A stretch of 64,000 nt of DNA from Tubiluchus corallicola (GCA_030141605.1 JAQGDQ010000778.1:32498-96497); one strand, 5' to 3'; numbered from the stretch's first letter, positions 24,301 to 30,300 are shown. A program made the numbers and translations. The notes: generated from the letters alone by a model not told the origin.

Positions 24301-27300
24301 ACTAGCGACTGCAACTGCACAGTCTTGCGAGACTAGCGACTGCAACTGCACAGTCTTGCGAGACTAGCGACTGCCAACGCCAGGACATATACCTACATAA
24401 TAATAATAATTGTTTGTTTCAAGAGAAGAGTTATATGTTAAAGTACAGTTTTAAAATGTTTTTTTTTTGTAGTTTCAAGGTAGTTTTTGTTATATTTTTA
24501 ACAACTGTTTAATGTAAGTCTCTGATATTGCATAATTAGTTTCTGTATATATCGTTTGGCGCACAAAAATGTGCGAAAATTTAGACTACAGCAATATTAG
24601 AAGCAAGCGTCTCACCACAAAGTATAACTTGGTATTAGAGTGCCACAAGCGATCTAATTCCCCTTGTTTTATTTATCCACGTAAAAACCTATACTATTTC
24701 TACTTCTACATTGTTTATTTTTTACTAAAAACTGGCACGTTTCACATTTGTAAGTGTTTCGTTCTTCACCTGCCATGTTTTACTATAACAGGTCAACAAC
24801 CCCAACTTTCGCACATGTTTTAGTTACATTTGATAATTGCTGCAAATCACAAGTATTTAAGTAATTCTGCAGGCTTCCCATGGTGATTGAAAAATTTTTC
24901 AAATGTAACTGGCATGTATTTTCATTTCCTTCCCGTGCACGGATGCACATTGGACAGACAGCATTTTCCACTGGGTTCTATCGGCGGCTTCTCTTTCGAT
25001 GTTCTCCCAACGTCTGTTAATAGCCCAAAGGTCTTCTTTGAAAGATCTGCGCCACGTTGTTTTTGGCCGACCTCTTTTCCTTTTTCCATCAGGTGGTTCC
25101 CAGCGTAACGCTATTTTGGAGTGGCGTTGTTCTGGTAGGCGTAGAATATGTCCAGCCAATCTCAGCCTTCTCTCTGCGACTATTTCCTGCAACCGCCTTG
25201 ACTGCGCCTGCTGTAGGACTTCCACATTGACAAGCGAAGTTTGATTTTCTTGTCAATTTTCTTGCTTGCCCAGATTTTTCCCATCTTCCTAAATACTGCT
25301 GCTGCTTTGCCAATTCTCACCCTGATGTCGCTTTCATGTCCACACTGTCGAAACTTTGGTCTTTTCATGACCTATTCTCTGTCCAATTTTCACTGCAGTA
25401 GCTTTTAATGATTTTGAAACTGTATCACTGTGTGAAAACTCTGTATAACTGTAAAAATTTGTTAGCAAAAGTTACGAATGTCTATGATTTCTTTAAATTG
25501 GAATATTACAACTTCATTTATATTTCTACCTCCCAGCATTAACACTTCAAGTTTCCTTTGTGAATTTTATTCAGTTATTAAATATTCTCACGTAATATGA
25601 GCTCTTAGATGTTCGGTTGTAGAAAAAGGCATTTTATGCACTAATGTTAGTTTTGGTTCAGCAAAATCTGAAAAAATGATATATGGTTCAGTGTAGTTTG
25701 TTTCTTGGGTAGATTTTTCCATTCAGTGAGCAAACATTTCTCTTCAAAAAGCTCGTTTTGGTGAAAATCCTATTATTAACATCACTTATGTACAGTCAAG
25801 TTACATAAGTGGTTCAATTAAAAGAAATTAATAGACTAATAGCAAAAGTAAAATAAATATCAAACACCGAACAATAAAAAAGCACAGTTGTTATTTACAT
25901 ACAAGAAGACAAAGCATTAATTTTGCATTTGTCATTATGATTATTTTTCATCACATTTCATTGTGAAATCATAATTTCTAATTTTGGTTTTTACTGATTT
26001 TTATTTAAGTTTAACATCCAAAATGGATAAAAATGAGAATTGCTCAATTCCTTTACTTCTATGAAAACATAACGTTTGCAGCTTTGATGCCGTTTCATGT
26101 TATAGCTGTAGATGCTTGTTATGTTGCGTTATATTTTCGACTAGAGCTAAGCTTTGTGTAACTTACTTGCACTGGGTGTAATAGTAACTTTTTAAACTGA
26201 TTTTAGGTTGCGATTGCGGATATTAGCGTTCCTGATCCGAACACTGCTGGTCAAGATCCGACAGAATCAGTGGATAGCTATCCACCCGGTGAAACTTCGA
26301 CATGCAAAACCACTGAAACTGTCAGCACTCAGAATTCTGGAAATGCGGACACGATCACCACCGACAGCGCTGCGGGCACAGCGGCGGAAACGGCAAGTAA
26401 CTACCCGCCAGGTGAGACGTCTACCTGCAAAACCACTGATACGGTCAGTACGCAGAAGGCAGGACAAGCTGATACTAACACTACCGACAGCTCCGCAAAC
26501 CAAGAAGCTGCAAGTAACTACCCGCCCGGGGAGACGTCTACCTGCAAGACGACAGACACGGTCAGCACTCAGAAGGCTGGCCAGTCAAACACTAACACTA
26601 CCAATAGTTCTCCAAATCAACAAGCTGCTGAACAGTACCCGCCCGGAGAGACATCCACCTGTAAGACGACAGACTCGGTTAAAACGCAAAATTCTGGACA
26701 GTCAAACACTAACACGACCGACAGCGGCACTGCCAGCGGTTCTTCTGCAAACAGCGATGAGTCACAAAATGAAGCCAAAGGAGATGAAGCCAAAACTACA
26801 AAAGAAGAAGATAAACTGCCATCTGGTGAGCAGTCGAGTTACAAGACAACCGATACAGTAAGCTGCCATTCATCCGGACAAGCTGTCACACACACGACAG
26901 ACAGCTCTCCAAAACAAAAGTGCACTATCCAAGCCGTTGCCATGGCAACTCAGCCAGTTGAGCAGATGCCACCTGGTGAGACTTCTACGTGCAAAACCAC
27001 TGATACGGTGAGCACCCAGTCTGCAGGACAGTCCAACACAAACACTACTGATAGTGCAGCAGCAGCAGCAGCTCAGCAGCAGGGAGAGACATCCGGAGAA
27101 GGAACCTCTGCACCGTGTAAGTACAGAGATGATTATGTTCTGTTGATGCTTGATATTATTTGGTATTTGATATTTAAGCTGGAATACTGTAATTAATACA
27201 CAATTAGACGTACTTAATTGCTGCTTAAACATACCAGCAGAATCACTTTTGTTCCAGTGTTGTCACCAGTAACCAGTTTTTCTCTGCCAAATGGACTGAT

Positions 27301-30300
27301 TTTGCGGACCATGTTCCGTCTTGACGCATTGTCTACACAATTTACTATTTATAACAATTACTAAAATGCTTCTGCTAATTAAATGAGTTCAGAAGATGCT
27401 TAATAAATGATCGACCAGCTAATGATGAAACCACCACTGGGTAAAATTGTCAACAGACGATCATTTCAAGTACTTCTGGAAGCAAAATATGGCACTGTTG
27501 TATAATGTTTGCAGTGAAATTCAAAAACTTGGCAAATTTTCAAAATTCACACAGTTCCCAAATTTTCAAATTTAGAGTTGGTTAACGTGATTTCACAAAG
27601 CTGTCCAAATGTCAATACTGGAACGCGTTCTGCTGATCAAATATGCCATTCATTTTTTGCCCAAGGAGTTTCCGATTGTCAGCATTGCTATATGTATAAG
27701 AATACAAATCTAAGAATCTGCCGTCTTGATATGAACGGCTGAAAGCACACAACATTTGAATTAGCAACCTCAGACTTACATGCTAACATTTCATTCATGT
27801 AAGTCATTCTTAAAGAACGATATTTCTTTTTCATTTTTTTACATTGTGAATCATTTTATGCTTGAATGATGTTTTCCTTTGAATTTGCTTCATACTCCAA
27901 GCAAACACTCTGTTCCACTTTTTGAGCAATGTGCAAGCAATTTCTAGGAACATTTGCCCGTCTTTCTCACCGTTCTCTTTGAAATCGATGCGGTGATTAT
28001 TTGGTTATTTTTTCCAACCAACTAGCTCATAAATTGCCAGAATTGCCCCCTAATAACAGTTTTCCAGACAAGTAAAAAATGATTTCCAGTCGATCAGGTA
28101 TCAACCTTTAAATGCACTACATGTGGAGCTATGTATTAGCTATAGATTATGCAAAACAAGGCATCATTGATAAATCTTTAGAGCTGCTGTCAACTAGCGC
28201 AATCTATTATCTTTCTTCCTGCCATTTCCACTAACACATCTTTCTACCCTTCCTGTGTGATCTAACCTTTCTCCCAGTTCTTTTTTTTTTGTTCACTCAT
28301 CCATTCTTTTTTTATCGGGTTCACATGACAGTGGGTTTATACAAGCCTTTGCTTCTCTAACCCACTGCAGTACAATTATTCTTTTACGATAACGATAGTG
28401 TATGAAACATAACAATTTAATACAGTGTGACGTAATAATTTTGATGTCACTGTGTGCTTAATGTCATTATATTGTACTGAATGTGATAATAATAATAATA
28501 ATAATAATAATAATAATAATAATAATAATAATAATAATAATAATAATAGCCAAGTATAACATTGAATCCGTTTTTGGCACTGCAAATGCAATAGGAGCCG
28601 TACTTTTTGTTTTATGCTCTTTCATTATTTCATGCTTCGTGTTTTTAAGATGCATAAAAAGTTCTTTTTATTGTAGGTGAGACAACTACCACCAATACCA
28701 CTAATACCACCACCACTGCTGCGGCCAACAGCGGTGAAGGTGCGAACACAACTGAGGCACCTGCAGAAGAACAAGGTGCAGCAGCGCTACAAGAACAACA
28801 GCAGATGGAAGACAACGAACAACAAGCTGAAGCTACCCCGGAGCAGCAGCAGTCTGATATGTCCTTAGGCGACGGACCCGTTGCACAGCAGTCTGATATG
28901 TCTGTGGATGGTGCACTAGAAGATGCCCCAATGGAGGCAGTAAAGGTCAGTTCACAGGTGCGTGTTAGCTTGTTTGCTGTCTCGTCTTTGCAATCTTTCT
29001 CGGTGTAATCTAGGAAGTTGATAGCGCACACAGTGGTAGGGATTGGTTGACGTTCAGACTGCATGAAAGTTTTGGGTTATGTGGTGCATATTTAGATTTT
29101 ATACAATTTTTTAAAAATCCACCTGTACAACTCACAACCACTGCAGTTTGTCCACTGCTAAATGTGCCATAATGCTGAAACTTGGGTGATCAATGACCAC
29201 CAGCAAGGATGAGAATTTTCCGCGGATACGCAGAATTCCGAGTTTTTGGAATACCAGTAGTGCCATTTTTGTAAATCGCGTAAATTCGTTGAGAAAATGT
29301 TTTTACAATACATTACATTATTTCACAAGCTGACCGCTAGTTGGCAGGCTGTCACTTTGTTTACATCACGTACATCAGTGGAACCACGTGTATATCGCTA
29401 TGTGTAAAAATATAGAATCAATTGTGCGGAGTTATTTGAGTCAATTGCAGACAGTTTTGCATAGGAGCGGCCAGTGCTTAGGCGTTTTTGAGACAATTAG
29501 GTATCATGTATCCTTGATATTTGGGTATTTTAAATTATGCATAAAACAAGGTAATTGATATTTTAAGTCCACGTAGAGGCTATGGTCACAAAATTGCAAT
29601 TTGTTGCTGGCTCCCCTTGAACTCCATTGGGGCTTAGGTGGCCCCAAACCCCCCGGACTGTTTCAGAGTTTTTTACAATTTGTCATTCTCATCCCTGCAT
29701 AAGTCATTTATTTCACATTACACATTTACAATAGTTTCATGTACAATATCTAGTGAAAGGGCCTACAATGAACATAATATAAATAAGTTTTTATTGTTTC
29801 TGCACAAGAAAAGCCTCAAACATTGTTCACCTATATACGAATGTAAATGTGTTGCGGGCAATCAGAAAGCAGGTGGCCCGAAAACCCCCGGCCTGTTTCA
29901 GAGTTTTTTACAATTTGTCATTCTCATCCCTGCACCAGGAACATCCAAACAATAAACTCACAGACAAGTTGTCAGGTGCATAGAATAAGGAATGCACTGT
30001 GAACTATGTAAATAGATCAAAATCAGTGCAAGAGTTCGACGACTTTTAATTGAAAATTACAATTACAAAAATTACATGTATGATGGTCGCTGTGTCTTTG
30101 ACAGGAATTTAATATAATTTTAAGGGAAAATTACAATCCATGTTAATTCGGCAAATACATTTTTGTAGTAGTTGTATGTCGTACGTCGACACCTTTGGGG
30201 CAGCTATGCCCTCTATTCAGCATTCAGTTTTTATTTGCCTCATATGACTGAGAAGAGGTTCACATAAGTGCAGTTGTTTTATAGCATAGTAGCAGTTAAA

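Follow-up and report, generated by a model that had tools for sequence, protein, structure and literature searches.

An intron-split candidate OGT cleavage unit in a protostome-type HCF gene

A stretch of 64,000 nucleotides from Tubiluchus corallicola (GCA_030141605.1, JAQGDQ010000778.1:32498-96497; hereafter the window) contains an HCF-1 gene whose product carries a unit closely resembling HCF-1PRO, the repeat at which vertebrate HCF-1 is cleaved by OGT. An intron lies within the codon of Cys9 (PRO register), and the motif exists only after splicing. There is a somewhat better than even case, argued from sequence, that this unit at the exon 20/21 junction would be cut by OGT at Glu10 and that six related units carrying Gly9, upstream in exon 20, would act as extra docking sites. 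Taken over all readings, cleavage at the junction unit is probable.

The HCF gene and its junction unit

The gene model was assembled from tblastn matches and GT-AG sites. It comprises 28 exons (189..47699, +) and encodes a protein of 1652 aa with one terminal stop; intron phases are compatible at 27/27 introns. Identity to scallop HCF is 83% over 581 conserved columns, and the conserved domains are 82-83% identical to those of molluscan HCFs. The protein is ordered as Kelch, Fn3n, Basic, repeat region, Acidic, Fn3c and a basic tail resembling a nuclear localization signal (NLS). It thus has the features that define the HCF-1 family: Kelch with Fn3n, Basic, Acidic, Fn3c and a C-terminal basic NLS, the last assigned by eye. 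Lys and Arg number 35 against 4 Asp and Glu in the Basic region, and 6 against 33 in the Acidic region. Homologs for comparison were taken from the best 120 of 1,759 and the best 120 of 1,392 matches, together 201 distinct proteins. The 134 of at least 850 residues were kept (41 bony-vertebrate, 19 chondrichthyan and 74 others, isoforms and unnamed records included) and 67 fragments were dropped. Trees of the conserved domains leave the placement of the window protein at an open fork, and approximately unbiased tests reject none of three placements (p = 0.064, 0.127 and 0.247). Linker motifs, picked by eye out of an alignment, are clearer. Two are shared by the window protein and 47/63 other invertebrate proteins and occur in none of 71 deuterostome proteins; a third occurs in 43/63 against 0/71. 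Both deuterostome-type motifs of the Basic region are missing. By these sequence characters, therefore, the gene is a protostome-type HCF of a non-vertebrate animal. A vertebrate source was rejected.

Exon 20 (26207..27116, +) holds the Gly9-type array, with a period of 117 nt, and ends GCA CCG T at 27116, followed by gtaagt. These last bases (27110..27116, +) encode Ala7, Pro8 and the first base of Cys9. A phase-1 GT-AG intron of 1560 nt (27117..28676, +) closes with ttgtag, and exon 21 (28677..28945, +) opens with GT GAG at 28677. It supplies the rest of Cys9, Glu10 (residue 1240 of the protein), the linker and the Thr-rich region to Asn26 (28677..28729, +), and the Acidic region begins within it. 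Glu10 and the entire Thr-rich region are thus encoded in exon 21 alone. A preliminary description of the window had proposed the split codon with this donor and acceptor, the exon numbers and a motif visible only after splicing; the 28-exon model agrees on each.

Two sequencing runs were compared with the window over 24000-33700. Run X1 behaves as genomic DNA; X2 was taken, as a guess, to be RNA. The X2 contigs come from a relative and are about 90% identical to the window (31/323, 6/96 and 9/80 letters differ). One of them connects 27114 to 28679 via ATGC, which corresponds to removal of intron 27117-28676 and to the join of 27116 with 28677 that the preliminary description had predicted. At this junction the Pro and Cys codons differ at silent third positions, and Pro8-Cys9-Glu10 is preserved. 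A second contig connects 28945 to 31506, agreeing with the model, and X2 depth is zero in four intron bins (27240-28535). As support for the junction is one contig from one run of a relative, and contigs conceal rare isoforms, minor isoforms would go unseen. An extra exon separating Pro-Cys from Glu-Thr was rejected: scored with splice matrices built on the gene's own sites, the intron yields no cassette exon that is open and in frame, and the X2 contig joins Pro-Cys directly to Glu.

Exon 20 also contains six phase-1 cryptic GT donors (26288-26975) that splice in frame to exon 21 and, if used, would give shorter in-frame isoforms with fewer array units; a seventh, at 26660, scores lower. Scored with a matrix built on the remaining 26 donors of the gene, five of the cryptic sites reach 6.9-10.8 bits, against 5.3 bits for the donor used. 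The strongest lies after 26411, inside array unit 2. X2 reads through the cryptic donor at 26825, and that at 26975 is too close to a contig end to count. The donor re-formed at the spliced junction scores 3.2 bits; conceivably the T at its -1 position is retained because it weakens this site.

The human repeat sequence appears in PMC6240873, in the E10S peptide and region by region. Against its 15-mer core the junction unit is identical at 11/15 positions, as first described. Shuffles scoring at least 11 numbered 0/20,000 for the central region, 0/20,000 for exons 20-21 and, in two block shuffles that leave local Thr richness intact, 0/5,000 each. A chance origin of the motif was rejected on the 0/20,000 result. 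The unit lies in the same gene and at the same position, between the Basic and Acidic regions, as the vertebrate repeats. It shares with them Pro8-Cys9-Glu10, the three-residue linker and T14, T16, T17, N18, T19, T21 and T22 in register (5/5 for T14, T17, T19, T21 and T22). A profile of 38 distinct bony-vertebrate repeats gives it 26.5 bits. The 19 chondrichthyan first units score 22-35 bits on this profile, the best of the 74 other invertebrate HCFs (a sea star) 0.35 bits and 1,500 block shuffles at most 13.4 bits. The most similar of 68 vertebrate units agrees with the junction unit at 14/19 positions.

The likeness is incomplete. Human HCF-1 has six OGT-cleaved repeats, whereas the window unit is a single, putatively cleaved Cys9 copy in a non-vertebrate host. 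Multiple copies in one large exon are a feature of the vertebrate repeats; here only the Gly9 units share an exon. By sequence the junction unit would act like an HCF-1PRO repeat, and it falls outside strict membership on account of Ala7, the missing Cys4-Ser5-Asn6 and the intron. It is the most canonical unit of the gene, and PRO-like units do occur outside vertebrates.

The Gly9-type array and the proposed cleavage mechanism

Six PPGET units stand upstream of the junction unit in a common PRO register, with Gly9 throughout and Cys14 in five. Their cores (positions 7-22, all +) lie at 26282..26329 (unit 1), 26405..26452 (unit 2, with the strongest cryptic phase-1 donor), 26522..26569 (unit 3), 26639..26686 (unit 4), 26819..26866 (degenerate unit 5, read through unspliced by X2 record 9) and 26969..27016 (unit 6, 15/26 identical to the second shark unit). 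Successive spacings up to the junction unit are 41, 39, 39, 60, 50 and 47 residues, so that 39 occurs twice, and units 5-6 are colinear in X2. Summed over the 10 pairs of the five intact cores, 148/160 residues are identical but only 55/148 third codon positions; on this sequence evidence the units are old duplications under purifying selection. Glu10 is retained in every unit and T14 is missing. Of the cleavage region Pro7-Pro8-Cys9-Glu10 they keep 3/4, with Gly9.

The mechanism in human HCF-1 has been described. The TPR domain of OGT binds T14-T24, cleavage occurs at C9-E10, and T14 is critical for it (PMC4840301). The substitutions P8A and C9A inhibit cleavage of the human repeat, T11-E13 have little effect, and Glu10 weakens OGT binding (PMC4549301). 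Glu10 with an in-register Thr-rich region is enough: OGT also cleaves a chimera with Val9-Glu10, if less efficiently (PMC6240873). A single repeat is not or poorly cut, and multi-repeat substrates bind OGT far more tightly (PMC11440498). The human repeat is also cleaved by fly and Trichoplax OGT (PMC4840301). By analogy with this mechanism, Thr14-Thr22 of the junction unit would be bound by the asparagine ladder of the OGT TPR domain. Glu10 would be glycosylated and the chain then broken between Cys9 and Glu10, leaving the two HCF halves held together via the Fn3 module. The Gly9/Cys14 units would bind OGT but cut poorly; like the neighbouring repeats of human HCF-1, they would raise OGT occupancy and add avidity.

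How far the site depends on the exact junction, a dependence asserted in the preliminary description, can be stated in two parts. Pro8-Cys9 comes from the junction, which therefore probably tunes cleavage efficiency; in the human repeat the substitution C9A is inhibitory (PMC4549301). An absolute dependence is not supported: Glu10 and the Thr-rich region are encoded entirely by exon 21, and the six phase-1 GT sites in exon 20 also join in frame. Cys9 is not strictly required, since sharks have His9 and the Val9-Glu10 chimera is cleaved, less efficiently (PMC6240873).

Alternative modes of HCF processing give a further comparison. The Taspase 1 consensus is Q-[FILVM]-D-G. In Drosophila HCF the Taspase 1 site likewise lies between the Basic and Acidic regions, and cleavage of the window protein would divide it into N- and C-terminal parts in the same way; the central region of the latter, however, contains no Taspase-like Q-x-D-G motif. 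Tandem arrays of Cys-x5/6-Cys occur between the Basic and Acidic regions in bivalves, many gastropods, nemerteans, chelicerates and lancelets (P0004, P0045, P0049, P0065, P0099, P0123, P0145 and P0180 are examples). Like the window array they are tandem units at the same position, and some contain P-G-D/E or G-E-x3-C, loosely resembling it. Each of their units, however, holds two Cys, and a Thr-rich region is lacking; no such Cys-pair array is present in the window protein. Among the 74 invertebrate HCFs, 33 have the array only, 16 a Taspase-like motif only, 1 both and 24 neither, counts that are phylogenetically non-independent. The near-exclusivity of the two hints, at the sequence level, that the Cys-pair array may be an alternative processing signal. 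The lack of both from the window protein fits a role of the junction unit as a replacement processing site.

Several observations count against cleavage at the junction unit with docking upstream. Ala7 reduces its cleavage region to 3/4, and the N-terminal Cys4-Ser5-Asn6 is absent. At 26.5 bits the junction unit scores lower than every bony-vertebrate unit (the lowest reaches 31 bits, scored on its own profile). The array units reach about -3.6 bits on the 38-repeat profile, against a shuffle 95th percentile of -4.7. As 24/74 invertebrate HCFs have neither a Taspase-like motif nor an array, cleavage may not be universal. Ala7, the 31% Ser+Thr content of exons 20-21 and the many invertebrate HCFs that lack a recognisable site would all suit an uncut protein in which the region is a platform for OGT binding and O-linked N-acetylglucosamine, HCF staying whole. 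This is a minority reading, with perhaps one chance in a handful. Pro8-Cys9-Glu10 is conserved in X2, and Glu10 is kept in all units although the residue weakens OGT binding (PMC4549301); nothing would favour its retention at a site used for docking alone. Less likely again is a multi-site array like that of human HCF-1, in which cutting extends to the Gly9-type units and the number of sites, the junction unit among them, may reach six. Glu10, T17, T19, T22 and S21 are in register in 4/6 units, the array core is strongly constrained, and position 9 accepts Val (PMC6240873). Against these stand Cys at position 14, where T14 is critical for cleavage (PMC4840301), the inhibition by C9A (PMC4549301), the low profile score and the Ala14 of the matching shark unit. 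An artefact, whether a wrong junction or a chance motif, is very improbable: the donor used is weaker than five in-frame cryptic donors in exon 20, yet the X2 contigs splice at precisely this junction and pass unspliced through 26825, and the 11/15 match was reached by no shuffle in 20,000.

Evolutionary origin of the two unit types

In PMC4840301, HCF-1PRO is described as vertebrate-only, not found even in degenerate form in non-vertebrate genomes and generally confined to one exon, and a viral origin of the vertebrate repeat is proposed as a possibility. Two repeat-like units have been noted in chimaera (bioRxiv 10.1101/577890). No report of PRO-like units in invertebrates, or of Cys-pair arrays, was found in the literature as covered here, for most papers at the level of listings. 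Three of the statements in PMC4840301 (vertebrate-only, none degenerate, one exon) are at odds with an intron-split unit lying in register in a protostome-type HCF.

The closest comparison is with cartilaginous fishes, whose HCF-1/HCF-2 likewise combine one Asn15-type and one Gly9-type unit, with 39-residue spacing and similarity beyond the core. In 19/19 chondrichthyan proteins the second, Gly9 unit lies exactly 39 residues after the first. When a profile of the window array was run against the 134 homologs, its best match was this second unit in a shark, in register, a result reached by 1/3,000 shuffles. Positions 23-34, outside the core, match the same unit in fixed register (21 and 80/100,000 under two nulls). 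Because the array is constrained and matches shark unit 2 both in register and beyond the core, the two unit types look old, judging by sequence. The suggestion that the junction unit was a single ancestral site and the array a secondary expansion is not supported in that form, the array units being themselves old, constrained and matched in sharks; either type may have come first. Differences remain: the chondrichthyan first unit has His9 for Cys9 and is followed by a single Gly9 copy with Ala14, whereas the window has six Gly9 copies, five with Cys14, placed before the Asn15-type unit. Among the chondrichthyan proteins, His9 replaces Cys9 in the first unit of all 19 (P0136-P0167), and the second-unit core (Gly9/Ala14) is invariant in 19/19 and decays in bony vertebrates.

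The sequence comparison tilts towards homology of both window unit types with the two cartilaginous-fish units, which would make the module older than vertebrates. It would also undercut the published vertebrate-only, viral-origin model. The case has its weak points. The chimaera protein matches the array less strongly (12/3,000 shuffles). As the shark-array tests were devised after the match was seen, and in low-complexity sequence, homology is favoured and not proven. PCE occurs in only 1/74 other invertebrate HCFs, so homology demands many losses. Exon 20 is without a match in three sequence searches or Pfam; the null results cover a word-index search of longer proteins, PDB sequences, phmmer against 1.84 billion representatives, metagenome contigs, viral contigs, the ESM Atlas and Pfam, and count for little with low-complexity sequence, as the vertebrate repeats were likewise missed. 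The one PCE-bearing protein, from a sea star (P0137, 1/8 echinoderm proteins), has a degenerate C-x-N-P-P-C-E unit at residue 991, with T14, N18, T19 and a poor Thr-rich region.

A more specific proposal, and a tentative one, is that an OGT-cleaved module consisting of one cutting unit, Gly9 docking units and 39-residue spacing was present in the protostome-deuterostome ancestor. Equally tentatively, it would have been kept in this lineage, in the sea star (degenerate) and in vertebrates, and elsewhere have given way to Taspase sites or Cys-pair arrays. If true, OGT proteolysis would have its first natural substrate outside vertebrates in the window protein, and a viral origin would be unnecessary. 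Convergence is a serious competitor, if still short of an even chance. On this view the fixed geometry of OGT would have twice favoured one Glu-plus-Thr pattern, in a Thr-rich linker of a protostome-type lineage and separately in vertebrates. The patchy distribution (1/74) suits this reading, as do the fast turnover of a region where other lineages carry Cys-pair arrays or Taspase-like motifs, the reversed unit order relative to sharks and the absence of any intron-split repeat (0/4) in three fish-type genomic fragments. It accounts poorly for matches at positions without a known role (Asn15, Ala25-Asn26, 23-34), for two unit types and a 39-residue spacing common to both lineages, and for the degenerate sea star unit. 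A separate acquisition from a virus or mobile element would extend the hypothesis of PMC4840301 and is a slim prospect. The unit occupies the same position in the same gene and is split by an intron, and three scans of viral contigs, including degenerate DNA patterns, gave no match, a weak test because the collection is probably mostly prokaryotic viruses. The natural variants Ala7 and Gly9/Cys14 are material for asking what makes a unit cut and what makes it only bind.

In metagenome contigs the degenerate DNA patterns located three loci, all with vertebrate-type repeats. In these fish-type HCF-1 fragments (L001-L003) the repeats lie in short open frames, which suggests, from sequence, several exons rather than one large exon.

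Other features of the window

Within the HCF gene, a 50-nt triplication at 8990-9145 presents the exon 8 acceptor three times, of which the last copy was modelled; it could be real or an assembly error. A hAT transposase remnant (16591-17274, +; weak match) lies in HCF intron 12. An open RBR/IBR ubiquitin-ligase frame of 435 codons (36969-38276, -) runs antisense within intron 23, with another open reading frame nearby (34651-34965, -), and a 57-nt minisatellite (44725-46942) begins at the exon 27 donor. An ESM Atlas search with the ubiquitin-ligase frame yielded no pointer to a clade. A repeat at 10436-11010 is headed by a full-length 5S rRNA match, and its body recurs at 50445-50820; we take it to resemble a 5S-derived short interspersed nuclear element. 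Tail to tail with HCF lies a dystroglycan-like gene (51088-57218, -; DAG1 match) with a mucin-like exon of 960 codons.

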